Under the pieces are notes generated by a model, which searched no databases, had not been told where the DNA came from, and worked only from the letters and a program-made list of their open reading frames with translations. From positions 256,001 to 320,000 of the forward strand of contig CAVRJO010000001.1 of the NCBI GenBank assembly GCA_963722255.1: a DNA stretch of 64,000 bases. The letters run 5' to 3'. The DNA comes from Candidatus Babeliales bacterium. Lineage in GTDB: Bacteria; Babelota; Babeliae; Babelales; JANWKD01. Position 1 is the first letter of the stretch, and each line of letters begins with the position of its first letter. The position numbers and the translations under genes are program-made. Of the stretch, positions 514-61,703 are shown piece by piece.

Positions 514-795
514 ATGACCATTTCTAAAACAATCAGCTTGGACAAAAAAATTATTTTCTTATTATCAATTTGCCTTATGCAAAGCTTACTTAAAGGCATG
601 CATACTGAAGAAAAACTTTTGATAGATCCTGATAATAAAAATAAATATACGATGGAAATGGGAGCAGTTCCGGCTAAAAAAGATAACTTTGATTCATTAT
701 GTAATTGTAGTGAATTTTCATGGTTATGTGATTGTAGCGAAAGACAACGAGCAAGCAATTTACTGTGCTGTTTGATCTTATGTTGTCCTCATTAA
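514..795 (+). CDS. Small secreted protein with Cys-rich C-terminus
   Basis: Signal-peptide-like KKIIFLLSICLMQSLLKG|M; ends LLCCLILCCPH; start may be TTG at 538. Confidence 0.55.
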   Translation: MTISKTISLDKKIIFLLSICLMQSLLKGMHTEEKLLIDPDNKNKYTMEMGAVPAKKDNFDSLCNCSEFSWLCDCSERQRASNLLCCLILCCPH

Positions 796-848
796 TTAGA
801 GAAAATGGTATACTATTACCTATATAAAAAACTTTAAAACTAGTTGAA

Positions 849-1064
849 TTGTTAATGAAAAAGTTATCCATCGGTATAATAATTGAATTCAAAAAAGTCT
901 CAACATTAGGCAATGAAACCATTGAAGCTACTGCACAGCGCGCATTAGAACAAATTAATGCTAAACAGTATGCACAAGAATTAACTTCATTAGGAATTAA
1001 ACAAATTAAAAAGCTTGGTATTGCATTTCAAGGCAAAAAACTTTTGGTTCTTGAAGGTAATTAA
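849..1064 (+). pseudogene. Orphan 3' fragment of an AAA-ATPase/PD-(D/E)XK nuclease gene
   Basis: IIEFKKVST...AQRALEQINAKQYAQEL..LGI..IKKLGIAFQGKK aligns with the C-terminus of ORF 31051..32730; the upstream part of the gene is absent. Confidence 0.8.
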
Positions 1065-1073
1065 TTTAATAAA

Positions 1074-1851: not shown

Positions 1852-1939
1852 TTAACAGATGCATTGCATACCCAATAAATTCACTATAAGGAATTAGATG
1901 AATTCTTTAAAAATCAGCTTCTTGGCTCTATTATTATTA

Positions 1940-3078
1940 CAGGACTTCCGCAGAGTATTTAAAGATTTGATCTAGACGTATTTTTAAAAAATAATAGACT
2001 CTCCCAAAAAGCCTAATTCAAGGGAGAGCCTAAAATGATCATCGTTAATACTATAGCAACTTATCCATTTCTTACAATTCTTACAAATATTGGCAAACGA
2101 AGTTTTGAGAATATGGGTAGGGTAATCAAAAAAAGCGGAGATACCATTAGCCGAATGTTACGGCCAGGTCATGAAAGCCTTGAACAATCAAAAAAAATTG
2201 CACAACAAATTTTCGCTGATAAAAAAGAATTATTAGCAGTTATAGATGAAACGGCTATCAAAAAAATTCATTCTCAAATGATGGAAGGTACGGGATGGCT
2301 TTTTGATACTAAGATAGGCAGGTCGATTAATGCATACAAATTGATTATTGGTGCTATTTCTGATCGTAAGTTTGTTGTGCCTATAAATGCTGCTTTTACT
2401 TTTGGTAAGGAATTTTATACAAATCCAAGCGAAGCTTTAAGAATTACTGTACAACATTTCATTAATACCGCTCAAAAACTTTTCCCTAATACACGAATTA
2501 TTGCTGTTTTAGATGGTGCATATGCTACTGTAAAGTATCTACAATGGGCTATTGAAAATAACATTGAAACTGAAGTGCGCATGCATAGTAATCGTGTTGT
2601 TGAGTACAAAGGAAAAAAGAAAAAGCTGCGTGAAATTAAAGAAATACGTCCAAAAGGCCGCCAAATGGCTCGAACTGTACAAGTTATTTGGCGCGGCCTT
2701 TCTTTATATATTACCGCTGTAAGGCGCATTGATAAGCATGGCAATGAAACAATTGTTTACCAAGCAGCAACCTATAAAGCTACTCCAAAACAACATGCTA
2801 TGAATTATAAAAAGCGATGGGGCATAGAGAAATTAAATAGAACTACTAAGCAAAGTTTAGGTTTACAGGAATGTTTTTCTCGAAAAATAGTTACACAATA
2901 TGACCATATTTGTGCCGTGCTTTTAGCATATTCTCTCGTTCAATTGGAAATGAAAAAAAATGGTTATAAAAACGCAGAAACCGCTATCAGAGCTCTTAAG
3001 AAAAAAAATCCTGCTTTTTTAAATCGATGCATTACGGCTCTAGATCAAAACAATGCTAGTGTTTATGCGTAATTCCTG
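1940..3078 (+). mobile_element. Insertion sequence, IS701/IS4-like, 1139 bp
   Basis: TIRs CAGGACTTCCGCA (1940-1952) and TGCGTAATTCCTG (3066-3078); TSD TTATTA at 1934-1939 and 3079-3084; subterminal IR TTTGATCTAGA (1966-1976) / TCTAGATCAAA (3039-3049). Confidence 0.92.
2035..3072 (+). CDS. DDE transposase (IS701/IS4-like)
   Basis: AVIDET, AVLDGAY and YKKRWGIEKLNRTTKQ (Y-R-E-K signature); fills the IS. Confidence 0.9.
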   Translation: MIIVNTIATYPFLTILTNIGKRSFENMGRVIKKSGDTISRMLRPGHESLEQSKKIAQQIFADKKELLAVIDETAIKKIHSQMMEGTGWLFDTKIGRSINAYKLIIGAISDRKFVVPINAAFTFGKEFYTNPSEALRITVQHFINTAQKLFPNTRIIAVLDGAYATVKYLQWAIENNIETEVRMHSNRVVEYKGKKKKLREIKEIRPKGRQMARTVQVIWRGLSLYITAVRRIDKHGNETIVYQAATYKATPKQHAMNYKKRWGIEKLNRTTKQSLGLQECFSRKIVTQYDHICAVLLAYSLVQLEMKKNGYKNAETAIRALKKKNPAFLNRCITALDQNNASVYA

Positions 3079-3306
3079 TTATTAGGAAATTATTCCTTAC
3101 CAATCTACGGAATGGATGCTCAGGAAAATAAATAAACAATGTTCTTGGTTACAATAGCCACTATGTTATGCATCAGAATATATCAATTTGTGTCAGTTAT
3201 TTTTATTTGTCATTAAAAACAAAACATCACAATCATTTTTGTTTTTTAAGCAAAAAAATGATACTATTAAAGCATAATTAGATTTCTACGTTTACATGGA
3301 GAAGCT

Positions 3307-3951
3307 ATGTTTATTTCACAATGCAGATTAATTCTTCTTATCATATTAGCGAGTTATGCATCCTCAACCTATGGCATGGAGCGCAAAAATAATGCTCTAA
3401 GCGCAAAAAGATTCATTGTCGGCCTTTGTGCAACTACACTAGGGGCTTTGAGCCTCTATGATCAACTACATAATGAAAAATATTCATGGAAACGATCATT
3501 CTTTACAGGAAGCTGTTTATTAACCGGGTTAATAAGTTTATTTGGTAAGTGTAATGTAGCAGGATTCAAAGTTACTCCTCCAACCACTACAAGCTTTACT
3601 CGCACCGAAACATCTTATCAACAAGGTGATCATTGGGTTACCTTTGTTACGCAAGAAGGTGACATACCCCAAACCAATGAAGACCAGCCATCCGAAGCGC
3701 CTTTTGATTTATCAAGCCTTCGTCAATATGAGCCTTACTTACGCGATATGCGACCAACGAGACCCACACAACCACAACGACCCCATGCTTTTATTCCACC
3801 AATGTCTCCTATCATGCCAATGTCTCCCGTCGCACCTTTTGCGCCGTTTTTCACGTTTGATAATAATGGCGAAGAACAATATACACGAAGAACCAGAAGG
3901 CATCGCCAAACAATACCAGGGAACTTTAGTATAAGCTGTACACTTTTTTAA
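3307..3951 (+). CDS. Secreted/membrane protein with hydrophobic hairpin, Pro-rich region and C-terminal CaaX-like motif
   Basis: GGAG RBS; signal peptide ...STYG|M; two hydrophobic segments; ends SCTLF*. Confidence 0.75.
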   Translation: MFISQCRLILLIILASYASSTYGMERKNNALSAKRFIVGLCATTLGALSLYDQLHNEKYSWKRSFFTGSCLLTGLISLFGKCNVAGFKVTPPTTTSFTRTETSYQQGDHWVTFVTQEGDIPQTNEDQPSEAPFDLSSLRQYEPYLRDMRPTRPTQPQRPHAFIPPMSPIMPMSPVAPFAPFFTFDNNGEEQYTRRTRRHRQTIPGNFSISCTLF

Positions 3952-3966
3952 TAAACAACACACTGG

Positions 3967-4983: not shown

Positions 4984-4995
4984 AAAAGGACCTCG

Positions 4996-6584: not shown

Positions 6585-7346
6585 ATGAACAACTTATTCT
6601 ATACCCTTACAATTAGTTTGTTTTTTTCATCAACTTTACTCAGTATGGAGGAACCTAAATTACTCATAGAGCAAAAATATGTAGAAAAGACATCGTATTT
6701 TCTTAATTTTAATACTTTTGCTTATTTTTTTACAAGAAAGCTCCCAGACAGAATAATGGATCAGAGCAATCTCAAAAGTTATAAAGACAGAATTGATAGC
6801 TTAAAAGAAACCCTGAAACAATCCCCTGATCAACTTTTCAGGACAATCCGAGATTTACCAAATAGTGATCCTTTCTGTACAACATGTGAAGCATTGGGAA
6901 TTTGGGAAGAATTCAGCAACCTTGCCTATGGATATTGCATAGAAAAAGAAGGCCACTACGTTGCAAAAACCTTTGATGCTCTAAAAAAATTGCGTTTAGA
7001 TTATGAAAAAACTAACAACGCCGATACACCTGGTTATTCTGAACAAAAAAAGGTTACAATAGAAAGAAAAATTGAAAAAATTGATACCTGGTATCATAAG
7101 TTACAAGAATCACCCGAAGAAATATCCGATGTTTTAAAAGAAATTGCTGATTACTTTGGAGAAGCACATGAGGCATGCATAAAATTTTTAAATATTAATA
7201 TTAAACAGTGTGAAAATGAAGAACAAAGAAAAATATTACCAATCTTACAAACAATTGGTACCTCATTGAATACGTTGCTTAATTTAAGAATCAGCTATCT
7301 AATGACGGCACTTAATATGGCTACAAACAAAGTTTTAGAAAATTAA
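6585..7346 (+). CDS. Secreted helical hypothetical protein
   Basis: AAGGA RBS; signal peptide ...TLLS|MEE. Confidence 0.75.
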   Translation: MNNLFYTLTISLFFSSTLLSMEEPKLLIEQKYVEKTSYFLNFNTFAYFFTRKLPDRIMDQSNLKSYKDRIDSLKETLKQSPDQLFRTIRDLPNSDPFCTTCEALGIWEEFSNLAYGYCIEKEGHYVAKTFDALKKLRLDYEKTNNADTPGYSEQKKVTIERKIEKIDTWYHKLQESPEEISDVLKEIADYFGEAHEACIKFLNINIKQCENEEQRKILPILQTIGTSLNTLLNLRISYLMTALNMATNKVLEN

Positions 7347-7419: not shown

Positions 7420-8610
7420 TTATTTTTCTTCTCGCAATTTATTAATTAGTGTTCCCGATGATTGCCAACTAATAACCTTTGCATAAGGCCACGGCTGATC
7501 CTCTGACCCACCATAAATAAGGTATCGTGGTGCTTCAGGATGGTCGGTTATGCTTTTCCAATGCTCAAGTTCTTTAAAAAAATCTGTTGCTATAGTCTTA
7601 CCCGATTTAATTTCTACGGCTATTGGGTATTTTGATTCGTCTATAATACAATCAATTTCATGTTGTGTCTGATCGCGCCAAAAATAGAGGCCTGGTTGTT
7701 GTTCTATGTTATATTGCTGCTTCAATAAATCAGAAATAATAAATGATTCAAAAAGTCCACCACGCAAATAATGATCAAGGATATTTTCAGCCGATGGAAT
7801 TTTTAATAACGAGCAAGCTATTCCCGTGTCTATAAAATAAAGCTTTGGAGCCTTAACCACTCTTTTACCAAAATTTTTATAAAAGGGATACAAGAGGAAG
7901 ATCACGTAACTTGCTTCAAGCAGTGATATCCATGCTTTGGCTGTATTCTGATTGATACCGCAATCATTTCCCAATGAAGTTAAATTAAGTTCACGCCCTA
8001 TCCTCCCTGCACACAAGTGCATAAATTTCTGGAATGTATTTAAGTCAGCAACATTCCTAATTTGGCGCACATCTCGTTCTACATACAATCGAAGATAATT
8101 GCTATACATTCGCTCTATAGAAATTTTTTCTGCATGTGCTCTTGGATACGAACCTTTATATAGTATAGTCTCAATTTTGGCAGGCAATAAACTAGCAGAT
8201 TCAAGCTCGCTTATTGATAATGGTAACAATGTTAATACGGCCATACGGCCTGCTAAAGTTTGCGTTATTGCTTCATCAACCAAAAAATTTTGTGATCCGG
8301 TGACAATAAAATAACCTTTCTTTTTTTCCCTATCTACAATTGTTTGCATATACGAAAGAAGAGATGGCACATGTTGAATCTCATCAAGAATTATTCCCGA
8401 TTCAGTTGGGTAATCTGTTAAAAACTTTCGAGGATCGGCCTGAGCAATGGCTCGCAAGTCATAATCCTCCAATGATATATATTTATGATTGGGAAATACC
8501 GTTTGTGACAAGGTTGTTTTTCCAGACTGGCGAGGTCCAACGATAGCAATAACGGGATACTCCAAGGAAGCTTCAAGCACTCTTGATTGCAAAGCTCTTT
8601 TTATTAACAT
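7420..8610 (-). CDS. AAA_14 ATPase with DUF4143 / restriction-endonuclease-like C-terminus
   Basis: GPRQSGKTT Walker A, ILDEIQ Walker B, KLYFIDTG, EID...VEIKSG. Confidence 0.9.
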   Translation of the reverse strand: MLIKRALQSRVLEASLEYPVIAIVGPRQSGKTTLSQTVFPNHKYISLEDYDLRAIAQADPRKFLTDYPTESGIILDEIQHVPSLLSYMQTIVDREKKKGYFIVTGSQNFLVDEAITQTLAGRMAVLTLLPLSISELESASLLPAKIETILYKGSYPRAHAEKISIERMYSNYLRLYVERDVRQIRNVADLNTFQKFMHLCAGRIGRELNLTSLGNDCGINQNTAKAWISLLEASYVIFLLYPFYKNFGKRVVKAPKLYFIDTGIACSLLKIPSAENILDHYLRGGLFESFIISDLLKQQYNIEQQPGLYFWRDQTQHEIDCIIDESKYPIAVEIKSGKTIATDFFKELEHWKSITDHPEAPRYLIYGGSEDQPWPYAKVISWQSSGTLINKLREEK

Positions 8611-10658: not shown

Positions 10659-11270
10659 TTATTGTTTTTCAATGAATTCCCATTCTTCATCATCCTCAGG
10701 TTCGCTTTCAGTTGCAACTTCCCATTCTTCACCCAATGAACTTCCATCAGCTGATTCCTCATCTGAATCAGGTGAATATTCTTCTATTATTTCCCATTCT
10801 TCTCGTGGAACATAAATTCTTGGTAAAAGACCTGATTTTCTTTTTTCTTCTTCTTCATGTTTTTTACGTTCAATCTCTCGTGCTTCTTGTGCTTTAAATC
10901 GAGCTATATTCTTTGCATTTCTTCTATCATAAGCAGCTTTTTTTTGCGGATCTGATAACGTATCATTTGCATTAGATATCGCTTTAAAAACGCTCCCTGC
11001 AATTTCGGCATTCTCATAACCGATTTTTTTAAGCTCTTTCGCTTTTGAAGGATATCTATCTGGATGAAATAAAAGACTTAATTTTTTATATGCCAATTTT
11101 ATGTCATTAGTTGTAGCATCATAACTAACATGTAAAATTTCATAAAAATTCTTCTCTTTTATGGCTTTGTCCATAGATTCTTTTGTTAATTCTCTGGTCA
11201 TAGCAAAAAGTTGCTGACTCATAAGAACAAAAACAAATAATAGTGCAAATCGATAATACCTGTTCTTCAA
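10659..11270 (-). CDS. Secreted J-domain (DnaJ-like) protein with acidic tail
   Basis: GGAGG RBS with TTG start; signal ...LFA|M; FYEIL...AYKKLSLLFHPD...LSDPQKKAAYD. Confidence 0.88.
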   Translation of the reverse strand: MKNRYYRFALLFVFVLMSQQLFAMTRELTKESMDKAIKEKNFYEILHVSYDATTNDIKLAYKKLSLLFHPDRYPSKAKELKKIGYENAEIAGSVFKAISNANDTLSDPQKKAAYDRRNAKNIARFKAQEAREIERKKHEEEEKRKSGLLPRIYVPREEWEIIEEYSPDSDEESADGSSLGEEWEVATESEPEDDEEWEFIEKQ

Positions 11271-13649: not shown

Positions 13650-15168
<1,519 letters not shown>

Positions 15169-17199: not shown

Positions 17200-17234
17200 A
17201 AAGCCAAAGAATAGTACTTTCTTTGGCTTTTTTT
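17200..17234. terminator. Intrinsic terminator, probably bidirectional
   Basis: AAAGCCAAAGAA...TTCTTTGGCTTT followed by a T run, between convergent genes. Confidence 0.75.
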
Positions 17235-17844
17235 TATTTTACTAAACGATAATTTTCTTCAACATGATCCCAATTAACGACATGCCACCATGCTTGAATA
17301 TAATCAACACGACGATTATTATATTTTAAATAATAAGCATGTTCCCACACATCAATTCCCAAGAGCGGTCGAGATCCTTCAGAGAATGGCGTATCTTGGT
17401 TTGCTGTTGATGAAACTTCTAAATCACCTTTTTTATTCATTGAAAGCCATGCCCAGCCACTCCCAAATCGTGATTTTGCTGCCTCATCAAACTCAGATTT
17501 AAAAATCTCAAAGGTTCCAAATCCTTTTTTTATAGCTTCTGCAACTATCCCCTTTGGTACGCCTCCGCCGTCTTTTTCATCATTAACCAAAACATTGAGT
17601 GGTTTAGTTGGCCACCACCATGATTTCTTACTGCCGTTCTAATTCCTTCAGGGATCGCAGATAAATTTGATAAAAGCTCGACTAAAGGAATATTCTGTAG
17701 TTCTGGGTATGATTCCAACGCTTTGTTAAGTCCATCTATGTATGCTTGTTGATGTTTATCATGATGAAGCTCCATTGTTTTAGAATCAATGTAGGGCTCT
17801 AATGCATTATAAGCATAGGGCAATGATGCTAAACTATATTTCAT
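17234..17844 (-). CDS. sodA: Mn/Fe superoxide dismutase; 1-bp frameshift in a homopolymer near 17575
   Basis: [28 protein letters not shown] and DVWEHAYY across two frames. Confidence 0.9.
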
Positions 17845-19278: not shown

Positions 19279-19833
19279 ATGACAAAAAAATTTTCAACAC
19301 TATTCATTTTACTATTTTGCGGATCTTTATTTGGTATGCAAAATAATGATTTTTTCTTAGCAACTAAAAAGAAAAGAAAAAAGAAAGAACCTTTTCTAAC
19401 TTTTTTAGAGCAGAACGTTCAAACAGGCTTATATAAAAAAGAGGAAAAACAAAAAAAGAGTATTTATTACACAAAAAAAGATGCTGATACCAATGTTCAA
19501 ATAGAAACGGTAATTGATGCTTATCAAAAAATTCAAGGCCTCAAAACAATTTCATTGGTAACTACAGATATTCCAACGGATTGCAATCACATAGCTTCCA
19601 TGAAATACTTAATTTCAAACAATATCTGCACAATCTCACTTATACAAACCGATCCAGAATTCCAAAGACAAGGCTTTGGTAGCTTATTGCTTACTGATCT
19701 AGAGCAAGAATTGCGCCAAAGCGGATGCAAAGCGATTTCATTAATCGCTCTTGATAGTGCTGAAGGATTTTATGATAAACATGGTTTTATTACAGAGAAT
19801 GCCTTTGGGCGTAAGACTAAAAAATTAGATTGA
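19279..19833 (+). CDS. Secreted GNAT acetyltransferase with basic NLS-like patch
   Basis: Signal ...LFG|M; KKKRKKK; PEFQRQGFGSLL and AEGFYDKHGF. Confidence 0.85.
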   Translation: MTKKFSTLFILLFCGSLFGMQNNDFFLATKKKRKKKEPFLTFLEQNVQTGLYKKEEKQKKSIYYTKKDADTNVQIETVIDAYQKIQGLKTISLVTTDIPTDCNHIASMKYLISNNICTISLIQTDPEFQRQGFGSLLLTDLEQELRQSGCKAISLIALDSAEGFYDKHGFITENAFGRKTKKLD

Positions 19834-19850: not shown

Positions 19851-20531
19851 TTATGCTTTTAAATTTTTAATTAAAGCATGAAAATTTTCACATTTATTCC
19901 ACCACATAAGATCAAAAAATGATTGTACTGCTTTATAACTGCCAAAGGTAGCACTGGCAAATGACACAAATAATGACAAAGCAGTCAATGAACTTCGTAC
20001 CAACTCTTTACCCTTACTAGCTTCATATAATGAGACACCTAATCCTATGAATCCACAAAGACCTAACGCAGCATACCCAGTAAATGCTAATTTTGAAGGA
20101 GAATGTTTTCTAATATATGAAAGCAAATTTTGTTTACGCAGTTGATCTAAACGTGCTGCCATATAAACGAAAGTTACGTCTTTACCTCCCAAGGAAGGTT
20201 TTAGAGCTTCTACAATAAATTTTCTCTTTATCGAAATTCCCGAATCTACTACTCTCTTATAACCTCCTGGATTATAAGTATTCCAATCGTCTTCATTAAA
20301 AAAAGTTTCAGAAGCGTGAAAATTATCCTCAAAAATCGGACTTCTTCCAGCATATTCCACTATATCTATGTGCTTATTAGGAAAATCAACACCCTTCCTC
20401 AGAGCAACAAGAGCGATTTCCTTTATTGCAACTTCTACTGCAGTTTGTTCATCTTTGTCCATCCCAACTATAAAAGCATGGGGAGCAAGCATCATAACAA
20501 GAATTAACCGAAGTTTTATAAAAAATCTCAT
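19851..20531 (-). CDS. Secreted protein with C-terminal two-TM hairpin
   Basis: Signal ...IVG|MD; two hydrophobic segments near the C-terminus. Confidence 0.7.
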   Translation of the reverse strand: MRFFIKLRLILVMMLAPHAFIVGMDKDEQTAVEVAIKEIALVALRKGVDFPNKHIDIVEYAGRSPIFEDNFHASETFFNEDDWNTYNPGGYKRVVDSGISIKRKFIVEALKPSLGGKDVTFVYMAARLDQLRKQNLLSYIRKHSPSKLAFTGYAALGLCGFIGLGVSLYEASKGKELVRSSLTALSLFVSFASATFGSYKAVQSFFDLMWWNKCENFHALIKNLKA

Positions 20532-20573: not shown

Positions 20574-21527
20574 TTAATTATTTACCGTATAATTTAAAAT
20601 TGGAATTCGAATTTCAGGTGGTAATATACTTAAATATGAATCTTGGTTGCTAAAATGTTTCCTTGCCAGAATTTCTTTTCGGATCATTTTTTGTATCGCA
20701 GGGCTCTTTGCATGATTCAATAATGATTCTCCAGCATCAGTCATAACTTCAGGATCAGCACCAGCTTTAATAAGCAAATCTACCATCGCAATGCGATTAT
20801 ATTTTACAGCAGCCAATAATGGCGTATCACCAAAGCCATCCTTTGCTTCAATATCCATTTTTAAATCTATAAAAGCTTCAAGCATATAAATGGTTCCGAA
20901 TTTAGCTGCATGATGTAATAAAATTTTATTTTTATGGCTCGGGATTTTAACATCAAAATTATCAAGAATTAAATCAAAAATTTTATTGGTAGTGCCGACC
21001 ATACTACTATTAGTTGGACAAATCGATATTGCTGCGTGACAAGATTTAATTTTTGCGCCATATCCAATTAATAATTGGCAAGTTTCAAAACTACCTTTAT
21101 CGATAGCGTGCCATAATAAATCATTATTAAAAACAATGTCATTAGAACTGATTGCAGTTACGTCGAGAAGCTCTTTTATTTTTCTAGAATCATTAGATTC
21201 AATAAGCTCAGAAATCCTTTCCTGAGAAGGAATAATCTTTTTAGCGATTTGTGCCCTGATTGACATATTGTGACTATTAATTTGTTGCAGGTATTGAACT
21301 TGAGCATATTTATTATATAAAAAACTTGCTAATCCTGAACAAAAAAAGGTTCCAGTAACTATCGATTTCTTAAAAGAATAATCTTTAGTATACAATTGCC
21401 AAACTAATGAGCCAACACCAAGCGCAGTAGCGCCAATACCAACAGTAAAACTAGTTTTGCGGCTCATACAATCTAATTGACAAGCGCTATTCAAAAAAAA
21501 GAGCAAAAACAGTACTATTAATTTCAT
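20574..21527 (-). CDS. Ankyrin-repeat protein with signal peptide, membrane hairpin and C-terminal F-box-like motif
   Basis: GDTPLLAAVKYNRIAMVDLLIKAGAD; C-terminal LSILPPEIRIPILNY. Confidence 0.85.
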   Translation of the reverse strand: MKLIVLFLLFFLNSACQLDCMSRKTSFTVGIGATALGVGSLVWQLYTKDYSFKKSIVTGTFFCSGLASFLYNKYAQVQYLQQINSHNMSIRAQIAKKIIPSQERISELIESNDSRKIKELLDVTAISSNDIVFNNDLLWHAIDKGSFETCQLLIGYGAKIKSCHAAISICPTNSSMVGTTNKIFDLILDNFDVKIPSHKNKILLHHAAKFGTIYMLEAFIDLKMDIEAKDGFGDTPLLAAVKYNRIAMVDLLIKAGADPEVMTDAGESLLNHAKSPAIQKMIRKEILARKHFSNQDSYLSILPPEIRIPILNYTVNN

Positions 21528-21539: not shown

Positions 21540-22475
21540 TTATTTATACGTAGCAAAACTTATAACACGATCTAAAAGCTCTTGTGGCATTGCTTGCGGT
21601 TTTCTATCTCTATACATCAAACTAGTTGGACTTAACGATTCCATAGAAATCATTTTAGCAACAATCAACTCTTTTAACCCTGCATTTATAACTTTATTTA
21701 ATACAGAATCTCCTGATAAAGTTGTTGCATTTAAATCAGCGCCAGCATTAATTAATGTTTTTGCTGCCGTAATATTATTATGTGCTGTAGCAATTAATAA
21801 TGGTGTGTATCCAAAATCATCACGAACTTCAAGATCAAATCCAAAATTAATAAAAGTTTCAACCATATGGGAAGTTCCATGACTAGCAGCATTTAATAAT
21901 AAAGTTTCACTCTTACGCTCTTTAAGCACGGAACGATCAAAACTATCCAATATTAAATCAAAAATATTATCATTAGCCAAAATTGAATTCTCTAAATCTC
22001 GTAAAGTAACTGTCGCTCCATTGTCAATAACCAATTTACAGATATCGAATTCACGCTTCACTATTGAATAATGTAAAATATCTCCGCCAAAAATTTTCTC
22101 ATCAGGACCAATTATACCTGCATCAAGAAGCCGTTTTATTTCATCATAGTTATTAGAAGCTGACACAAGGGCATAAAGAGTTTCTTCATCTACCTTTGCC
22201 TTATTGCTCAATTGATTGTTCTTTGTTGATCTAGGCAAACTTGTTACCTTCGCATAGTTACTATAGATCAAACTAGTTATTCCCGAAGTTATCAAAGTTC
22301 CCGTAACTATCGATTTTTTCAACGAATAATCTTTAGTATACAATTGCCATACTAATGAGCCAACACCAAGCGCAGTAGCGCCAATACCAACCGTAAAACT
22401 AGTTTTGCGGCTCATACAATCTAATTGACAAGCGCTATTCAAAAAAAAGAGCAAAAATAGTAGTTTAAATTTCAT
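21540..22475 (-). CDS. Ankyrin-repeat protein, tandem paralog
   Basis: GYTPLLIATAHNNITAAKTLINAGAD; same N-terminal 60 aa as its neighbour; C-terminal MPQELLDRVISF. Confidence 0.85.
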   Translation of the reverse strand: MKFKLLFLLFFLNSACQLDCMSRKTSFTVGIGATALGVGSLVWQLYTKDYSLKKSIVTGTLITSGITSLIYSNYAKVTSLPRSTKNNQLSNKAKVDEETLYALVSASNNYDEIKRLLDAGIIGPDEKIFGGDILHYSIVKREFDICKLVIDNGATVTLRDLENSILANDNIFDLILDSFDRSVLKERKSETLLLNAASHGTSHMVETFINFGFDLEVRDDFGYTPLLIATAHNNITAAKTLINAGADLNATTLSGDSVLNKVINAGLKELIVAKMISMESLSPTSLMYRDRKPQAMPQELLDRVISFATYK

Positions 22476-42683: not shown

Positions 42684-44057
42684 ATGATTATATATTTTTG
42701 TTTTTTTTGCAGCATATATTTTTCAGTGATCGGATGCATGGAAATAGAAAAAGCCTCCGATTATGATCTATCTTCTGAAAGCTTTAGCATCGAAAACCAT
42801 TATAAAGGAATCTATACTAATCTTGGCGACATTTATAAGGATATACCCTTACTCATTGAAGCAGCACCTACAAATAAAAAAGCCCTTTTATCACTCATTA
42901 GTTATTTTGAAACCATTCGTTTCGTTTTTGATTTTTTTGCCTATCAAACACCGCATACGCAGGCTCTACTCACAAACATTCCCTGGCAACAATTTCCTCT
43001 TAAAGAGTTACAACAACAAACTCCGGAGACTCCCGATGAAAAATATTATTATGGCATTTTATATTATTGTAACCGTTTAAAAAAGTATCGAATAGGTACA
43101 AAAAATAGTAGAAAACGTGGATTATCTTTGCTAGAAGAATCTGCAAACGCCGGTTTTCTCAAAGCGATGCATTATCTTGGAACTATTGCTCGATTAGAAA
43201 AAAATAAAACTAAGGCTCTTTCTTGGAACAGTAAAGCAAGCGAAGAAGATTATATTCCTTCTATTTTTGAATTAGGTTATATGATGCTTAAAAATACCGA
43301 TGATCAACAAAAAATCTCGCAAGCAGTTTCATATATTACAAAAGCAGCTGATAGTAACTATGCAACAGCACACTTTTATTTGGCCCTGCTTTATGATTCT
43401 AAAACGCGTTTTACCTCATTTACCGATACTGCAAAAGCACAATTTCATTATAAACATGCTGCCAGCTTAGGTTGCTTGCAAGCTCAACACAATCTTGGCA
43501 TGATCTGTTTACAAGGAACAGAAAAAAATAATGATATCATAGAAGGATTGCATACTATTAATAAAGCGGCACGTTGTGGATATGCACCATCACAAACCTA
43601 CCTAGGATTGCTCTATTGTTCAGGAATATATCTAAATAGAAATCCTTTGAAAGGAATCGAACTTCTTACTCATGCAGCAGTTCAAGATAATAGTGCTGCA
43701 TGCTTTCATCTTGCTAAGATATATATATTAGGAGATATAACTAATCAAGATATCCCCAAGGGAATTAAATTACTCAATAAATCTGTTAATGCAAATAATA
43801 TACATGCTCAATATCAATTAGGTATTTTTTACCTACATGCTATACATGTAGATAAAAACACCAATAAAGCAGTTCAATTACTTTCAAAATCTGCCTCTAA
43901 AGGATATTGTAATGCACAATATGTATTAGGAAAACTTTACACCGAAGGAACAATTATCAAACAAGATAACGATCTCGGCAAAAAATTATTAAATGCTGCA
44001 GCTGAACAAAATTATCAAGAGGCCATTGAATACCTCAAAAATCATGAAATTACCTAA
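42684..44057 (+). CDS. Secreted Sel1-repeat protein
   Basis: Repeated AQxxLG/Y...AA motifs; GAGGA RBS; signal ...IGC|MEI. Confidence 0.88.
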   Translation: MIIYFCFFCSIYFSVIGCMEIEKASDYDLSSESFSIENHYKGIYTNLGDIYKDIPLLIEAAPTNKKALLSLISYFETIRFVFDFFAYQTPHTQALLTNIPWQQFPLKELQQQTPETPDEKYYYGILYYCNRLKKYRIGTKNSRKRGLSLLEESANAGFLKAMHYLGTIARLEKNKTKALSWNSKASEEDYIPSIFELGYMMLKNTDDQQKISQAVSYITKAADSNYATAHFYLALLYDSKTRFTSFTDTAKAQFHYKHAASLGCLQAQHNLGMICLQGTEKNNDIIEGLHTINKAARCGYAPSQTYLGLLYCSGIYLNRNPLKGIELLTHAAVQDNSAACFHLAKIYILGDITNQDIPKGIKLLNKSVNANNIHAQYQLGIFYLHAIHVDKNTNKAVQLLSKSASKGYCNAQYVLGKLYTEGTIIKQDNDLGKKLLNAAAEQNYQEAIEYLKNHEIT

Positions 44058-44965
44058 CGAGCCTTTTCACTAATATGCTTTCGATCATCTACAAAAATAA
44101 GTGATGCAGTTTTATAAAGTTCATCAATATAGGTATCAAAGACTTCTTTAAATTTAGGTTCACGCAAATAATCAACAATTTCCCGATACCGCTCTTCCAA
44201 CGTAAGTAATCTACGTCCTTTTTTATCTTTCAAGCGATAAATTTCATAGCCATTGGAAACCCTTTGTGGTTTTGAAATTGCACCAATTTCCATAAAAGTA
44301 ATAAATTTTTTATCTTCAGCTAAATCGTTTTCATTAACCCATAACGGGACGCCCCACATTACATCAAGCTCATTATGTTCAATCTGATCCATGAGGTAAG
44401 AGCATTGTTCTTCTTGTTTAATAGGATCTCGCGAAAAGAAGGGCACAAACGCGACTTCCACTTGAAAATGAGCTTCTTCATATTTAGGATTTTTAGCATA
44501 TTCGTTTTCAACATCTTGCAATGCAATAATGATACGTGCCTTTACTTTAAGATCAATCATTGTAGCATTGGCGCCCATCTTTTGTAGTTTAAATCTGCCT
44601 TCTTCGGGAGTTAATCCTGCGCCTTCAAAAATATGTTCAACTTCTTTATCGCCAATATTATGATTCTTTTTAATAGAACGAATATAACGATCGGCGTAAT
44701 CATCAATAGGAATTCTATGCTTTAATGCATCTTGGTAAATCAACTCTTCAATAATTAAATCTTCAATAGCCGGCTTGCGCCCATCAATTCCAACACGATC
44801 CAATTCCGATTGACATATAAGATATCTTCGTTCCGGTCCATCAACTATAACCACAACTTTATCAATTGGAATAAGATTTGCCTCTTGAGTCGCATATGTT
44901 CTTGGCAACATAAAAAATAGACTCATATATAAAAATAAGCTAAATACGCTCATGATTTTTTTCAT
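44054..44965 (-). CDS. SurA-like periplasmic chaperone
   Basis: Signal peptide, IDKVVVIVDG, LIIEELIYQDA, degenerate parvulin segment GAISKP...GYEIYRL. Confidence 0.7.
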   Translation of the reverse strand: MKKIMSVFSLFLYMSLFFMLPRTYATQEANLIPIDKVVVIVDGPERRYLICQSELDRVGIDGRKPAIEDLIIEELIYQDALKHRIPIDDYADRYIRSIKKNHNIGDKEVEHIFEGAGLTPEEGRFKLQKMGANATMIDLKVKARIIIALQDVENEYAKNPKYEEAHFQVEVAFVPFFSRDPIKQEEQCSYLMDQIEHNELDVMWGVPLWVNENDLAEDKKFITFMEIGAISKPQRVSNGYEIYRLKDKKGRRLLTLEERYREIVDYLREPKFKEVFDTYIDELYKTASLIFVDDRKHISEKAR

Positions 44966-45042: not shown

Positions 45043-46104
45043 TTAAGCTGCCTTCATAGGAGCAGGAGCAGGTTTCTTTTCTTCCTGTTCTTTTTGCATT
45101 GCTTCTGCAGCTTTTTGCGCTTTTTCTTCTTGCGCTTTTTTTTCTCGTTCAAAATACTCTTTATTGGTAACCGCTTTGTACTCTTTTTTAAGTTTATCGA
45201 TTTCCTTGGTAAGAACTTCAGCGCCTTTTTGTTGTTTTAAAAGGTTTTCAATACCCGGCTTAACTTGTTCATAAGGAACATAGCTCGGTTCTGTTTTCTT
45301 AACTGCCTTTACAACAGCAAATGAGTTACCATTAACGGTAATAAGCTCAACGGTTGGGAACTTTTTCAATTCAATCAGTTTAGAACGAATTGCGCCGTCA
45401 ACATCATAACTTTGGCTGTTAACTTCACCAAGATCTTTAACGGTGAGATTAGATTCTTTAGCAATTCCATCAAAGTTCGTTTTTGCATCTTTTACTTTAG
45501 CAAAGAAGGCTTCTGCCGCATCTTTATTGTCAAACATTACCGCTTTAGCCTCGACACCACCAGGAGCAGCCATTAATTGTGGAATTGAATTCTTATTTTC
45601 TTCGTAATATGCTTTTATTTCTGCATCCGTTACAACAATTGGATGTTTTTCTTGGAAATGTTTTACATTTAAACTGCGACGAGCATACTTCATAATTTTA
45701 TCTAAATCATCCTTGTATGCAGGACTTTCAGCAATTTTATTTTTTGCTGCCCATTCTTCAAGAACAGCCTCATTAACTAAACTTTCAAAAATTTGTTCAT
45801 TTGCACCAGGCATAAACTCAATTATAGAAGCATAATTTGGTTGAGCTTCAAGAAGTTCATTTTTATAATTTTGAAAATCCTTCGTTGTAAGTCTTGGAAC
45901 TTTTTCATCATAGAGGGTTAATAAGATTTCGCCACCCGCTACTCCTGTTCCAGTAGCCGGTTTAGCAGCACCGGTTAATGCTTCTGCAGAACGCGTGGCC
46001 GTCACCTCTTTTTTTTCTTCTTGTCCTTTAAAAAAATCGCAATTGGGTAACAGAATTAAAGCTCCCACTAAGAATGCGCTACTAAAAACAGTAACTTTAT
46101 TCAT
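45043..46104 (-). CDS. PrsA/PpiC-like foldase, probable lipoprotein
   Basis: LPNC lipobox-like motif; VTDAEIKAYYEEN; FDGIAKES; DLG; YEQVK. Confidence 0.75.
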   Translation of the reverse strand: MNKVTVFSSAFLVGALILLPNCDFFKGQEEKKEVTATRSAEALTGAAKPATGTGVAGGEILLTLYDEKVPRLTTKDFQNYKNELLEAQPNYASIIEFMPGANEQIFESLVNEAVLEEWAAKNKIAESPAYKDDLDKIMKYARRSLNVKHFQEKHPIVVTDAEIKAYYEENKNSIPQLMAAPGGVEAKAVMFDNKDAAEAFFAKVKDAKTNFDGIAKESNLTVKDLGEVNSQSYDVDGAIRSKLIELKKFPTVELITVNGNSFAVVKAVKKTEPSYVPYEQVKPGIENLLKQQKGAEVLTKEIDKLKKEYKAVTNKEYFEREKKAQEEKAQKAAEAMQKEQEEKKPAPAPMKAA

Positions 46105-46865: not shown

Positions 46866-47304
46866 AATAAAGCAGCAAACGAAGAAGAATATTACTGAGT
46901 AAACCAGCCACAACATCATCAAGTAGAATACCAGAAGCACCCGGCAATTTTTCCATCCATCCTACTACGCCAAATTTACTAATATCAAAAAATCGAAAGA
47001 GTATACAACCACCTAGTAAGGATATCGGGCAAAGAGGCACAGCACAAAACGTAACAAGAGAACCTAGAACCTCATCGATAACGATTTCAGATGGATCTTC
47101 ATCATGATAGCTGATCAGAATCTTTTGAATACAAATATGTGCAATCACATAGCATAAACCCATGAGTGCTATATAGATATAGTTGGATGATTTTGGTAAC
47201 AAGCTTAACATACCTACTGTAGCAATCGTGGCTACAGTTCCCGATGCTGGAAAATAACCAAGTGGCCCCACTGTAGCATACCAGGAATACAGCTTAGCGT
47301 TCAT
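46855..47304 (-). CDS. pgpA: Phosphatidylglycerophosphatase A
   Basis: PASGT, DPSEIVIDE, FRFFDI, GILLDDVVAG. Confidence 0.92.
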   Translation of the reverse strand: MNAKLYSWYATVGPLGYFPASGTVATIATVGMLSLLPKSSNYIYIALMGLCYVIAHICIQKILISYHDEDPSEIVIDEVLGSLVTFCAVPLCPISLLGGCILFRFFDISKFGVVGWMEKLPGASGILLDDVVAGLLSNILLRLLLYYVF

Positions 47305-47776
47305 CAGAAAAAAGCCCTGTCAACATCATACCAAGAATACCGGTAACAATAACGAGATCCGCTATATTAAAAACAGGCCACGAAAATGATTTATAAGAAA
47401 GTAAAATAAAATCAACAACGCCACCATAGAGTAATCGATCTAAAAGATTTGAAAAAGCACCTGCGCATACCATGAGTTCACACATCACACCAAAATTGTT
47501 ATGATACCGGACAAATGAATATAAACAAAACGCCATAATACACACTGCTATAAGACCCGTCAAAATGCTAAAAACAAGTGTACTTTCTGAGTGAAACATT
47601 GACCAGGATATACCTCGATTATACTGCAAGGTAAACATGATATAATCATTCACAACATAAGGCTCTTGTAGAGAGCGCATGATATATTTGGTAATTCTAT
47701 CAACACTAAAGATGGAAAGAACTAAGGCGCTATACCAAAAAAGAATACGATTCGATCGAGAATGTGTAATGTTCAT
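47294..47776 (-). CDS. lspA: Lipoprotein signal peptidase II
   Basis: DRITK, NRGISWS, GAFSNLLDR, VVDFI, FNIAD. Confidence 0.94.
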   Translation of the reverse strand: MNITHSRSNRILFWYSALVLSIFSVDRITKYIMRSLQEPYVVNDYIMFTLQYNRGISWSMFHSESTLVFSILTGLIAVCIMAFCLYSFVRYHNNFGVMCELMVCAGAFSNLLDRLLYGGVVDFILLSYKSFSWPVFNIADLVIVTGILGMMLTGLFSDER

Positions 47777-52886: not shown

Positions 52887-53965
<1,079 letters not shown>

Positions 53966-56737: not shown

Positions 56738-56880
56738 AAGTCCTGAATTGTCTCGTATCCCTACCCTTCCCTATTAATAAATTATTTCAATTTGAATATT
56801 TTATTGAAAAATCACTTTGTTTTTTGCTATCCTTATACTAAATAGAAATTACTATGAAAAAAGAGTATAAAGGGGCGGCT

Positions 56881-58830: not shown

Positions 58831-58865
58831 TAAATTATCCATTTAAACAAAAAAAAGGATCAATA

Positions 58866-61703
58866 ATGCAGTTAAAATTATTATATTATGCATTCATTGC
58901 GTGTTCGCTCGCAATAAACATCGATCTGCATGCAATGAAGCGTAAACATGAAGAAGAGAAAGAAAAGGAAAAAGGATCTGAAGAACAAATTCTTGGAAAA
59001 GAGAAAAAACGAAAGTTAGAGCAAGAGCAACAACTTGTGCAAGGAATATTGCAAGAAAAAAGCTTAGAAGAACGTGCTCAAAATTACCTTACTACCCTTA
59101 TGCAAATAAAAGATGAACAAGCTCTTAACATAATGCTTGAACAGCATTTCTATGAACCATTAGAACTAAAAGATTATCTTACAAACCTAATAAACACACC
59201 AAATATAGTGGGTGAAACCCCTTTGCATGATGCCAAAAATAAATACCAAGTGCATGCTCTTTTTGCAATGGGTGCAAATCCAAATATTCGATCACATATT
59301 CTTCACTTCCCATTTGATACAATGCTCTTTAAAGGAAATATTGAAGCAGCAGAAGCAGTTCTTGAAATTTTGAAGGTAGAACCTCTTTTAGCTTTGAATT
59401 TGACAATTTTTACTACACTTCATTATGCAATTATGAATAATGCACCATCACTTGTACGAAGAATCCTTGCTAATCCCCAAAATCAAGATAATGTTGCAGA
59501 TGTTCTAGAAGAAAGAAACATTGAACCTGAGGCAATAGCTCTTATTGCAGCCGCTCTTTATTGCCCAGATTGCATTAAAGATCTTATTGCACATGGTGGT
59601 AATATAAACCTAATGGACTTAAATGGAATACCATTAATAGTTCACGCAGCTAGAACACAACCTCCTGCAATCATAGAAATGCTCATACAAAATGGAGCTG
59701 ATCCAGCTGCCGTTGATACGGATGACCTAAATATCCTTGCTTACGCAGTAGATAGCAATAACTATGATCTTATCACCTATTTAGTAGATACTAAAAAATT
59801 TAACGTTAATGTAGATCCTCAATCACCGGATTATGAAGGTGAATTCCATGAATTTCTAGCTCCCTTAGGCATAGCAGTAGAAAATTACCTTGTTGAAGAA
59901 AATCCATCACAGCTTACTAAGATAGAAGAGATTATACATTTTTTAGTTCAACGAGGTGCAAGAGTTAACACTACCCGATCTCTCTATCAAACACCACTTT
60001 TTATTAAATTAGTAAAAAAAGCTACTGAAAACACAAGAAGTTTTAATTTAGTTCGTTATTTTGTAGAACATGCTCATGCAGATGTCAATATCATTTCATT
60101 TGAAGAAAGTGAAATCAATCTTAGCAATCCTAAAGAAGAGTACCCATTAGCTGCAGCAATTTTTACTGATTATGATCACACTAAAGAAATCAATCAAATT
60201 AATGAAAATCTTAATTATGAACTTATAAACTATCTTATAGCCCATGGAGCAAAAATCAGACAACGTGATTTGGATATCATAGGTCAATTTGGCAATCAAA
60301 CGTTACGAGAAGCTCTAGCTAAAGCAGCTATTTTTGATGAACAAGAGTTTAATAAAAACATTGCAGGGCAAGAAAAAAAACTTGAAACTCCAATGGAGAT
60401 TGAAGAGACCCCGGAAGAATTAAAATCACCCAAAGAGGAATTTGAAGAAGTTTCACGCATCTATCAACCGCTTAGTTTAAAGTATCAAATAACTAAACAA
60501 TTTATTACAAATTTTTTACAAGCAGATCAAGAAGAAACTATCGCAATGCAAGAAGCTTATCAGAAATTGATTCCTGAGATGAAAGAGTATATACGCTTAT
60601 TAGTAAATGAAAAAAACAGTATGAATCTCACCTTATTGCATAATGCAACAACTGCTCAGGACGTTGAAAAACTCTTACTTCTTGGAGCTGATCCTGCTAT
60701 TGTGTCAAAAACCGGTCAAAATGCATTCTCAAGCATGCTGATACATGGTAATAATGCAGCAGCTGAAAAATTATTAGAACTTAACCCTGATGAATCTCTT
60801 ATCTTTTTTGATAAAGGCGGTTTATCGACTCTTCATTATGCTCTCATTGCTCATGCTGTATCTATAGCAAGAAGGATTTTGGATAATCCTGCAAACAAGG
60901 AAATAATTAAAACAACAATAAATGAATTAGTTGGGAGAGATCCCGGCGTAACTCCATTGATATTAGCAACACTTTATTGCCCTGAACTCATTGAACTGCT
61001 TATTCAAAACGGTGCTGAACCCAATTTGCATAATATAGATGGAGTATCTCCTCTTTTATTTGCTGCAAATAAACAACCCGTAGAATTTATTAAACTCTTA
61101 ATCAAATATGGAGCAAATTTAGAAGCTACTAATCATATTGGCGATGATGCCCTTTATTATGCAGTAGCTGGAAAGAATATTCCTCTTATTAGCTATTTAG
61201 TGCAAGAGCTAAAATTTGATCCCAATATACCTAATGATGATGAAGAGCCTACAACTGCATTTGAATATGCTATTCAAAATATTACAGATCCTGAATATCA
61301 TAAAACTATTGAAGAGTTATTAAAATATGGCGGTGATACGAATACAAAAAAAACTAACTTAACCATTATTATTCCAAAAGCATATGCGTATACCACTCTT
61401 ATAAAAGAGTTCATTCATCATGGTGCAGATGTAAATTACACTGATGGAATACGCTATCCGCTAGCTGAGGCGCTATTTCTCTATGATGAAAATGTCAATG
61501 ATTATGTCGAATTACGAAATCAATTTAATTATGATCTTATTGCTTACCTTATTGAAAAAGGAGCACTTATTGAACAAAAACATAAAGACATCATTATGAA
61601 GAGCCAAAATAAAGAGCTTATTAATCTCATTAAGCCCGCTAAAATTTATTATGAACACCTCAAAGAGGCAAAAAGAATTGAACACCAAGAAAAAAATGAC
61701 TAA
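58866..61703 (+). CDS. Secreted ankyrin-repeat protein made of two internally duplicated halves
   Basis: Signal ...LHA|MKRK; many ankyrin motifs; TLHYA, LYCP, ADVN, YPLA and NYxLIxYLI each occur twice. Confidence 0.9.
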   Translation: MQLKLLYYAFIACSLAINIDLHAMKRKHEEEKEKEKGSEEQILGKEKKRKLEQEQQLVQGILQEKSLEERAQNYLTTLMQIKDEQALNIMLEQHFYEPLELKDYLTNLINTPNIVGETPLHDAKNKYQVHALFAMGANPNIRSHILHFPFDTMLFKGNIEAAEAVLEILKVEPLLALNLTIFTTLHYAIMNNAPSLVRRILANPQNQDNVADVLEERNIEPEAIALIAAALYCPDCIKDLIAHGGNINLMDLNGIPLIVHAARTQPPAIIEMLIQNGADPAAVDTDDLNILAYAVDSNNYDLITYLVDTKKFNVNVDPQSPDYEGEFHEFLAPLGIAVENYLVEENPSQLTKIEEIIHFLVQRGARVNTTRSLYQTPLFIKLVKKATENTRSFNLVRYFVEHAHADVNIISFEESEINLSNPKEEYPLAAAIFTDYDHTKEINQINENLNYELINYLIAHGAKIRQRDLDIIGQFGNQTLREALAKAAIFDEQEFNKNIAGQEKKLETPMEIEETPEELKSPKEEFEEVSRIYQPLSLKYQITKQFITNFLQADQEETIAMQEAYQKLIPEMKEYIRLLVNEKNSMNLTLLHNATTAQDVEKLLLLGADPAIVSKTGQNAFSSMLIHGNNAAAEKLLELNPDESLIFFDKGGLSTLHYALIAHAVSIARRILDNPANKEIIKTTINELVGRDPGVTPLILATLYCPELIELLIQNGAEPNLHNIDGVSPLLFAANKQPVEFIKLLIKYGANLEATNHIGDDALYYAVAGKNIPLISYLVQELKFDPNIPNDDEEPTTAFEYAIQNITDPEYHKTIEELLKYGGDTNTKKTNLTIIIPKAYAYTTLIKEFIHHGADVNYTDGIRYPLAEALFLYDENVNDYVELRNQFNYDLIAYLIEKGALIEQKHKDIIMKSQNKELINLIKPAKIYYEHLKEAKRIEHQEKND

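Follow-up and report, generated by a model that had tools for sequence, protein, structure and literature searches.

The stretch of DNA considered here (the window) comprises 64,000 nucleotides from the genome of a Candidatus Babeliales bacterium (assembly GCA_963722255.1, contig CAVRJO010000001.1, positions 256,001 to 320,000 of the forward strand, or C1:256001-320000 below). The genome itself consists of 1.62 Mb in two contigs (C1 and C2), has a GC content of about 34% and is 93% complete. Many of the open reading frames (ORFs) in the window begin with a signal-peptide-like leader in which the residue directly behind the predicted signal peptidase I (SPase I) site, the +1 residue, is a methionine. 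The same arrangement is found throughout the genome and in related genomes, and will be called the Met rule.

A preliminary description of the window had listed 15 such cases among about 30 signal-peptide ORFs, and the individual cases could be reproduced. Translation of 14 intact ORFs, each from its listed position, yields a classical leader with n-, h- and c-regions followed by the Met. The remnant at 1898 is real as well, but its leader gene has been split by an insertion sequence, with the start at 1898 and the rest at about 3073-3135. The proportion is also a fair one, as about a dozen more leader-like ORFs without the Met are present among the 64 ORFs of the window. In 8 of the 15 cases the mature protein would start with ME, MD, MN or MQ, as had been claimed. 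The features are given below as read from the translations, with a slash at the predicted cut.

514 to 600, plus strand: leader MTISKTISLDKKIIFLLSICLMQSLLKG/MH of a 93-residue orphan without a Pfam hit
1898 to 1942, plus strand: N-terminal piece of the leader gene broken by the insertion sequence (begins MNSLKISFLALLLL)
2035 to 3072, plus strand: DDE transposase ORF splitting this leader gene (DDE_Tnp_1, E 4.4e-12)
about 3073 to 3135, plus strand: remainder of the broken leader, the Met and an early stop, FLLLGNYSLPIYG/MDAQENK-stop (junction NYSLPIYG/MD)
3307 to 3378, plus strand: leader ending in ASYASSTYG/ME, followed by two membrane-helix-like segments
6585 to 6647, plus strand: leader MNNLFYTLTISLFFSSTLLS/ME (LS/ME), weak GNAT-like cargo (GNAT_acetyltran E 4.6e-4, below the cut-off)
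11199 to 11270, minus strand: leader with TTG start, KNRYYRFALLFVFVLMSQQLFA/MT (FA/MT), J-domain cargo (DnaJ E 1.5e-16)
19279 to 19338, plus strand: leader MTKKFSTLFILLFCGSLFG/MQ (FG/MQ), GNAT acetyltransferase cargo
20460 to 20531, minus strand: leader MRFFIKLRLILVMMLAPHAFIVG/MD (VG/MD) of an orphan
21465 to 21527, minus strand: leader MKLIVLFLLFFLNSACQLDC/MS (DC/MS), two membrane-helix-like segments, then ankyrin repeats
22413 to 22475, minus strand: leader MKFKLLFLLFFLNSACQLDC/MS (DC/MS) of a paralogue of the 21527 gene, ankyrin repeats
25270 to 25338, plus strand: leader MKYVITIFFTTSLFLAPAFVQS/ME (QS/ME) of an orphan
32915 to 32989, plus strand: leader MKKLLQRFVMIFIAIIAINHSLQA/MN (QA/MN) of an orphan
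33952 to 34023, plus strand: leader MKKLLVSISILTFCITLGSAVFG/MF (FG/MF) of an orphan
39088 to 39171, minus strand: leader ending in LLFQEVFS/MVEDNRFFP of a 436-residue protein conserved across the order (ORF 37861-39171)
42684 to 42740, plus strand: leader MIIYFCFFCSIYFSVIGC/ME (GC/ME), Sel1-repeat cargo
58866 to 58937, plus strand: leader MQLKLLYYAFIACSLAINIDLHA/MK (HA/MK), 945-residue ankyrin-repeat cargo

Genome-wide enrichment of Met at the first mature position

The ORFs of the genome were self-called, giving 1725 of at least 60 residues and 1575 of at least 80. Cleavage sites were predicted with a home-made and lax heuristic that combines a hydrophobic core with the -3/-1 rule and is blind to the identity of the +1 residue, except for Pro. 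Among the 1575 ORFs it flags 570 as leader-like, and 118 of these (20.7%) carry a Met at +1, compared to a background of 1.73%. This amounts to a 12-fold excess, so that +1 Met tabulated with this heuristic lies above background genome-wide. The runner-up is Ser with 54 cases, while Gln accounts for 32. When the position is shifted, each other offset from -9 to +12 holds only 0-31 Met, and the enrichment is therefore a spike at a single position. The claim that the predicted sites fall directly before the Met is borne out by these offset counts.

The association does not depend on a cleavage rule. When none is imposed, 627 ORFs qualify by a hydrophobic N-terminus, and 315 of them contain a Met at most 14 residues past the hydrophobic window. 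Ala, Gly, Ser or Cys precedes 201 of these Met (64%); with nine control residues in place of Met this share is 15-35%. A motif scan (hydrophobic window, small residue, X, hydrophilic stretch) returned Met as X in 292 of the 1575 ORFs. Scored per background frequency, Met reaches 169 and all other residues 12-35. Both detectors require a hydrophobic h-region, and the set of 292 contains some false positives, for example one lipoprotein and a few over-extended ORFs.

The 118 ORFs with +1 Met span 97 BLAST families, 75 of which are singletons, so that paralogy does not account for their number. They are spread over both contigs with 11-33 genes per full 100-kb bin and are modestly clustered (83 adjacent pairs vs 53.5 +/- 6.1 in shuffles).

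Translation of the leader and position of the cut

According to the preliminary description, the idea would fail if the Met were the real start codon and the leader an untranslated upstream region. The ribosome-binding signal was found at the start of the leader instead. In the base profile a G-rich, Shine-Dalgarno (SD)-like peak lies at -11 to -6 of the leader start, as in control genes, while no such peak is seen upstream of the internal Met. A strict SD 4-mer precedes 37% of the leader starts in the set of 292 and 26% of the starts in 280 cytosolic-type controls. For the internal Met the figure is 2%, compared to 4% for 1677 random internal Met codons. At most leader starts of the window an SD-like motif is visible by eye.

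A decoy test was carried out on 370 genes with an SD-supported ATG. Only 16 of them have 22 stop-free in-frame codons upstream, the upstream translation mimics a leader in 2, and in none is it both mimicking and stop-free. In the 436-residue protein, all 12 orthologues compared (ten families) have kept an in-frame leader of similar length and unrelated sequence. A minority of artefacts does exist: an SD precedes the Met in 6 of the 292 flagged ORFs, and one ORF of genome G001 is clearly over-extended, being 90% identical to a protein of the source genome that starts at that very Met. The orthologue of C1:479429-480697 in genome G043 has an in-frame leader (ending in INKKTIVLIIFSSISFLAA/MEEN) with no ATG, GTG or TTG start ahead of it, which may reflect either a rare start codon or a recent loss of the leader.

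The 436-residue protein also allows the position of the cut to be viewed over a deep family. In an alignment of 119 homologues the Met column holds Met in 79 (66%) and the -1 column a small residue in 98 (Ala 67, Gly 16, Ser 15). The leader columns before the Met are variable, and those behind it are strongly conserved (V 81, Y/F 86, D 114, N 113, R 111, P 115). Conservation thus starts exactly at the Met, as is expected if the Met is the first mature residue. In Met-rule leaders as a whole, the -3 position is Leu, Ile or Val in about 59%, and Cys and Ser are unusually common at -1.

Spread across the Dependentiae

The same heuristic was applied to six relatives, namely 400 kb each of five Babeliales genomes from five families and 800 kb of a genome of the same genus. 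Met was found at +1 in 37 of 150, 24 of 138, 14 of 154, 28 of 158, 21 of 148 and 66 of 298 leader-like ORFs, and in all but one of these genomes no other +1 residue is as common. In 400 kb of E. coli K-12, in contrast, +1 Met occurs in 0 of 42 cases and Ala is commonest; the motif scan likewise gives Met in 9 of 358 ORFs, with no enrichment. The Met rule is phylum-wide across the Dependentiae and is not seen in this part of E. coli.

The genes that carry it turn over fast and are strongly lineage-specific. A homologue in the source genome is present for 81 of the 376 flagged ORFs of the six relatives (22%), compared to 46% of the other ORFs with a hydrophobic N-terminus and 64% of the remaining ORFs. 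Likewise, the reciprocal best hits with the genome of the same genus include 108 leader-like ORFs, of which just 7 belong to the Met class, as opposed to 118 of 570 overall. In best-hit pairs the Met state is kept in 27 of 81 cases; the baseline from leader-like ORFs that lack the Met is 32 of 575.

The residue after the Met

The position behind the Met (+2, or P2') is far from random. Among the 292 cases it is Glu in 128, Asn in 32, Gln in 27, Lys in 18, His in 13 and Asp in 11, so that Glu, Asp, Asn or Gln follows the Met in 198, and small residues do so in just 38. The second position of ordinary ORFs in the same genome looks different (Lys 20%, Asn 13%, Glu 7%, Asp 3%), and the relatives are similar in this respect. 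The choice of acid depends on the lineage: Glu and Asp occur at a ratio of 206:30 in three genomes of family f1 and of 11:33 in families f3 and f18 together (Fisher p 1.8e-16, an overstated value, as related genomes and paralogues are counted). Family-weighted percentages agree with this switch. Glu and Asp are equally frequent in the background, and leaders without Met show no bias for either acid.

At -1 and +2, synonymous codons are used much as in the genome as a whole, so that any selection would act on the amino acid. A motif at the DNA level was considered and rejected, as there is no conservation beyond the codons themselves. The junction is kept among diverged paralogues (25-50% identity).

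It had also been suggested that leaders were grafted onto the start codons of captured genes. The second-residue preference just described lends this suggestion little support, and so do the alignments with leaderless relatives (three J-domain proteins against DnaJ and one other pair), in which the residue that matches the leaderless start is found 3-14 residues downstream of the Met. The two other options offered, a +1 Met that serves as an export or sorting signal or one that gives a stable, host-like N-terminus, would both be compatible with the data. A single case with an offset of 0 looks like an over-extended ORF, and no leaderless paralogue starting at the Met was found within the source genome. 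At C1:750903-751918 a cytosolic nucleoside diphosphate kinase adjoins a leader-bearing paralogue in tandem. Here, the start Met of the cytosolic enzyme aligns to a Gly 15 residues past the predicted cut, and from its sequence the pair is a clean example of leader gain via N-terminal extension.

Cargo proteins and the contrast with housekeeping proteins

The cargoes of the window with Pfam hits are one J-domain protein, one GNAT, three ankyrin proteins and one Sel1-repeat protein; the others have none. The Pfam comparison (hits at E <= 1e-5) covers the window and the region C1:700-800 kb. In the latter, 32 of 103 ORFs are flagged and 24 of the 32 are without a Pfam hit, compared to hits in 41 of the 71 unflagged ORFs. 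The remaining eight flagged ORFs comprise two Ank, two DnaJ, one GNAT, one zf-C2H2 and one beta-lactamase-fold protein, together with an OmpA lipoprotein that is a false positive.

The housekeeping proteins of the envelope behave differently. The preliminary description had remarked that the foldases lack the Met; this holds and can be extended to all six SPase-I-type envelope proteins examined (two Omp85 proteins, two secretins, an HtrA-like protease and the SurA-like protein), whose +1 residues are Glu, Asp, Ser, Gln, Ala and Thr. Two lipoproteins, the peptidyl-prolyl isomerase of the window and an OmpA-domain protein, carry a Cys at +1. The relevant features of the window are as follows.

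44054 to 44965, minus strand: SurA-like envelope protein, leader without Met (ending in MLPRTYA/TQEAN; translation)
45043 to 46104, minus strand: peptidyl-prolyl isomerase (Rotamase_2), lipoprotein-type leader (ending in ILLPNC, then D) without Met (Pfam and translation)
47294 to 47776: LspA (Pfam)

The leaders of the two classes are otherwise alike in composition, with a mean length of 21 residues with Met and 20 without in the same genome. Genes of the Met class are slightly more AT-rich (33.2% vs 34.6% GC). The GC content of the leader was tried as a proxy for age and set aside, as the differences are too small to discriminate. A TolC-type OEP (PF02321) was not found in the source genome, at its 93% completeness.

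Several cargoes may be described individually. Three J-domain proteins with leaders follow the Met rule and one does not (the set includes 10659-11270, C1:791711-793132 and C1:795711-796313). As a J domain needs an Hsp70 partner, their targets may be host chaperones. A single database homologue was found for the protein at 10659-11270; it retains the junction as CA/MN. A 153-residue protein at C1:755307-755765 combines a Met-rule leader with a eukaryote-type C2H2 zinc finger (Pfam E 2e-7).

Leader-bearing GNATs are encoded at 19279-19833 of the window and at C1:753088-754507. Their weak best matches, far below the family cut-offs, include RimI and NAA60. Both of these are N-alpha-acetyltransferases. 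The two leader-bearing enzymes are thus possible candidates for modifying Met-Glu N-termini, which is to be taken as a lead only.

The products of 3307-3951, 20574-21527 and 21540-22475 share a module behind the Met that consists of two membrane-helix-like segments (G-I/L-G/C-A-T-x-L-G and following residues). In two of the three the module is followed by ankyrin repeats. Judged by this architecture, the three products are probably membrane-inserted effectors.

Signal type and relation to known systems

The Met-rule leaders match the description of Sec/SPase I signals as far as their sequences go, with a charged n-region, an h-region, a small residue at -1 and a small or aliphatic one at -3. 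A Lys or Arg precedes the hydrophobic core in 268 of the 292 leaders (mean 1.7 per leader), the composition is dominated by Leu (17%), Phe (12%) and Ile (12%) with 7.3% Lys and 1.3% Arg, and the Met is located at residue 18-35 in 227 of 292. The n-, h- and c-regions and the -3/-1 rule are thus shared with classical Sec/SPase I signals; the difference lies at +1, where Ala is commonest in E. coli and Met is commonest here.

Other signal types fit less well. The +1 Met does not agree with a lipoprotein signal for signal peptidase II, as the true lipoproteins of this genome have a Cys. Type IV prepilin leaders can be set aside since here the hydrophobic stretch lies ahead of the cut and the mature protein starts with hydrophilic residues; the true pseudopilins of the genome (N_methyl, T2SSG) look different from the Met-rule leaders. 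A Tat signal is equally inappropriate, with RR anywhere in only 12 of 292 leaders and RRx plus a hydrophobic residue in 7.

The signal peptidase itself, LepB, was found in each of the 41 genomes in which it was sought, and often there are two copies. The source genome has two (C2:137881-138756 and C2:701907-702773) and genomes G001 and G040 have one each. The N-terminal regions of the two copies are near-identical, which points to a recent duplication rather than to a specialised second enzyme. A search for Met-aminopeptidases in the source genome gave one M24 peptidase without an obvious leader and a degraded copy.

The closest known parallel is the Q-rule of the Bacteroidetes. Gln is described at P1' of SPase I substrates, where cyclisation turns it into pyroglutamate (Bochtler et al. 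2018, PMC5837995), the +1 Gln is said to stabilise exported proteins, presumably against aminopeptidases (Szczesniak et al. 2023, PMC10653852; PMC5837995), and the rule reaches all compartments at 48% or more (PMC5837995). Both rules are lineage-specific and concern the first residue after a Sec/SPase I leader that is otherwise ordinary. Genome-wide statistics brought both to light, and both cover a large share of the secretome. However, Met cannot cyclise, and the Met rule has a P2' acid that switches between Glu and Asp by family. Moreover, the Q-rule spans all compartments, whereas the Met rule skips the housekeeping envelope proteins (0 of 6) and marks fast-evolving ones. The Met rule is not a member of the Q-rule either, given that +1 Met outnumbers Gln by 118 to 32 among the 570 leader-like ORFs. 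A search of the source genome (93% complete) for the plant-type glutaminyl cyclase (PF05096) gave no match; the animal type was not searched.

A second parallel is offered by lipoprotein sorting. In Lol avoidance (+2 Asp, E. coli) and in the lipoprotein export signal of the Bacteroidetes, an acid after the first mature residue decides the compartment. The likeness consists of this acid and of a leader end of the type Leu-x-small. The +1 residue in those systems is, however, an acylated Cys instead of a Met, and the chemistry of signal peptidase II is inapplicable here.

The biology is the same as that of the Sec/type II secretome reported for other Dependentiae. Signal peptides are reported on 79 of 126 ankyrin proteins of Babela massiliensis, for which type II was the only secretion system detected (PMC4378268), and a putative signal peptide is found in 44% of the coding sequences of Chromulinavorax destructans (PMC6561590). 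The word methionine does not occur in the main texts of these two papers, and the +1 Met rule is not described there. No description of it was found in the literature that was searched, including the Dependentiae genome papers PMC6561590, PMC4378268 and PMC4776705, supplements aside. The Met rule is apparently unpublished. It represents a signal of a known kind in a form that extends over the phylum. The source genome contains type II secretion genes, namely secretins, GspF, GspG and pseudopilins.

Proposed explanation and alternatives

As a whole, the observations are best explained by genuine Sec/SPase I leaders with a selected Met-acid N-terminus behind them, which may play a role after cleavage, an explanation to which slightly better than even confidence is given. 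Its parts differ in strength. It is likely, judging from the patterns in the ORFs, that the leaders are real and end in a cut before the Met, and that selection acts on the motif. That the role concerns stability or sorting after cleavage is a tentative proposal and less likely than not.

In detail, a translated Sec-type leader would be cut by SPase I immediately before the Met, so that the exported protein would begin with Met-Glu in family f1, with Met-Asp in some other families and less often with Met-Asn, Met-Gln or Met-Lys. The Met would belong to an N-terminal export module of leader, Met and short polar linker, and would not represent the old start of the cargo. Throughout the order Babeliales, selection on the amino acids would maintain the rule, which would mark one class of the secretome that is fast-evolving and mostly orphan or eukaryote-like (ankyrin, Sel1, J-domain, GNAT, C2H2). 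After cleavage, the Met-acid N-terminus may provide stability by resisting Met-aminopeptidase or other aminopeptidases and by not being an N-degron. Alternatively, it may act as a mark that is read by an onward type II export step. A post-cleavage role is preferred because of the class specificity, the low number of small residues after the Met and the analogy with the Q-rule. Due to the specificity of Met-aminopeptidase, a non-small residue behind the Met would keep the Met in place.

Several points weigh against this explanation. The cleavage sites are predictions of the home-made heuristic throughout. The sole outgroup, 400 kb of E. coli K-12, is neither AT-rich nor amoeba-associated. The rule is weakest in G040 (family f6), where the 14 cases of 154 show no acidic preference and six of them belong to one paralogue family, and the Glu/Asp switch elsewhere carries the inflated p value noted above. 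Retention of the Met is only moderate, not much different from the identity of the sequences as a whole (about 35%), and falls with distance from 15 of 32 within the genus and 9 of 20 within the family to 3 of 29 in other families. The direct test of orthologue columns is underpowered, with only 7 reciprocal-best-hit pairs of the Met class per run (400-800 kb, six relatives), and only about four cases inform on whether the Met is an old start. Furthermore, no reader or modifying enzyme was identified among the LepB copies, the M24 peptidases and PF05096. A specialised LepB paralogue as reader was rejected in view of the near-identical N-termini in the source genome and the single copy in G001 and G040.

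Part of the evidence would also follow if the Met were a fossil start codon, i.e. if leaders had been gained by 5' extension or grafting and the old ATG lingered as first mature residue in young genes. The Met class is indeed lineage-specific, with few homologues in the source genome and few same-genus reciprocal best hits; its cargoes have domains of a cytosolic or eukaryote-like kind (Ank, Sel1, DnaJ, GNAT, zf-C2H2), its genes are slightly poorer in GC, Met retention decays with distance, and leader gain by N-terminal extension does occur, as the kinase pair illustrates. Nevertheless, this origin is considered rather unlikely. A fossil would not be required to sit exactly at the cut, nor does it account for Glu or Asp at +2 in 139 of 292 cases, when ordinary ORFs have 7% Glu and 3% Asp, or for the switch between the two acids by lineage. 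No SD remnant precedes the Met (2%), the Met lies upstream of the leaderless starts by 3-14 residues, the old start of the kinase aligns to a Gly, and the lone case with offset 0 resembles an over-extended ORF. Finally, an old, order-wide family retains the Met in 79 of 119 members. Tuning of the signal peptidase itself is another thought: LepB might prefer certain P1' and P2' residues, and Met-acid might aid the efficient or timed cleavage of a subset of substrates with no later role. The motif does occupy P1'-P2' of the scissile bond, the lineage preference for Glu or Asp could track changes in the LepB subsites, and LepB was found in every genome searched, often twice. This is nonetheless improbable, as the housekeeping substrates carry Glu, Asp, Ser, Gln, Ala and Thr at +1, so that LepB can do without Met; the two copies in the source genome, near-identical at their N-termini, do not include a specialised one, and G001 shows the rule with one LepB.

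The two remaining alternatives concern initiation. If the internal Met were an alternative start that gives rise to a cytosolic isoform next to the exported one, the codon right after the leader would be expected to be ATG, as it always is, and the clear SD in only 26-37% of genes leaves room in principle for initiation without it. However, an SD precedes the Met even less often (2%) than random internal Met codons (4%), the context before the Met is T-rich whereas real starts have an A-rich one, and the second-codon preference is unlike that of real starts. The small -1 and allowed -3 residues are explained by cleavage and not by initiation, and a dual start is deemed very improbable. It is scarcely credible that the Met is simply the true start and the leader a T-rich untranslated region picked up by ORF extension. 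T-rich DNA does translate to hydrophobic residues, and the six ORFs with an SD before the Met and the over-extended ORF of G001 are examples of the kind. Yet the decoys rarely resemble leaders (2 of 370, none stop-free, and just 16 with 22 open upstream codons), the SD is located at the leader start, Lys or Arg is present in the n-region of 268 of 292 leaders, and the in-frame leader is kept in 12 of 12 orthologues.

A bolder proposal is that the N-terminal Met-Glu, Met-Asp, Met-Asn or Met-Gln serves as a secretome-wide host-mimicry tag on effectors that reach the host cytosol. This is considered quite unlikely. The eukaryotic proteins that it would imitate, the NatB substrate class, make up about a fifth of all eukaryotic proteins. 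The Met would not be removable by Met-aminopeptidase, the terminus would be no recognised N-degron, and it might be acetylated by the host or by the leader-bearing GNATs of the parasite with their weak likeness to RimI and NAA60. The switch between Glu and Asp might then reflect co-evolution with a reader, be it the onward type II step or a host factor. Should the proposal be true, host-directed effectors of the Dependentiae could be recognised by this simple flag in their sequence.

The Dependentiae are a widespread phylum of protist parasites with a very large predicted secretome and with type II secretion only (PMC4378268, PMC6561590). The Met rule may bear on how ankyrin-type effectors are chosen and delivered in this phylum. 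About a sixth of the ORFs (292 of 1575) fall under the rule, which splits fast-evolving, presumably host-directed proteins from the housekeeping proteins of the envelope; it thus offers a cheap predictor of effectors, as well as a testable handle in the substitution of the Met or the acid. After the Q-rule, it would be a second example of phylum-specific selection on the first mature residue. Gene callers that start at the internal ATG would erase the leader.

Other features of the window and genome

The insertion element that interrupts the leader gene at 1898-3135 may have been active recently, since an ORF with the same N-terminal sequence as the transposase at 2035-3072 is present at C1:789338-790372.

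A number of housekeeping genes are split into two to three ORFs each, at 14147-15168, 17234-17844, 27552-29394 and 52914-53965 of the window and at C1:722339-724936. The genes concerned are a class II aminoacyl-tRNA synthetase, a Fe/Mn superoxide dismutase, GlmS, a class I synthetase of the Trp/Tyr type and, outside the window, AlaRS. They are either real frameshifts or pseudogenes, or assembly errors.

Many copies of an ATPase with AAA_14 and DUF4143 domains were also observed (7420-8610 in the window; C1:765095-767694, C1:774921-776084 and C1:793847-795070), and a gene with AAA-ATPase_like and PD-(D/E)XK domains lies at 31051-32730 of the window. From their domain content, the AAA_14/DUF4143-type ATPases look like an expanded family.

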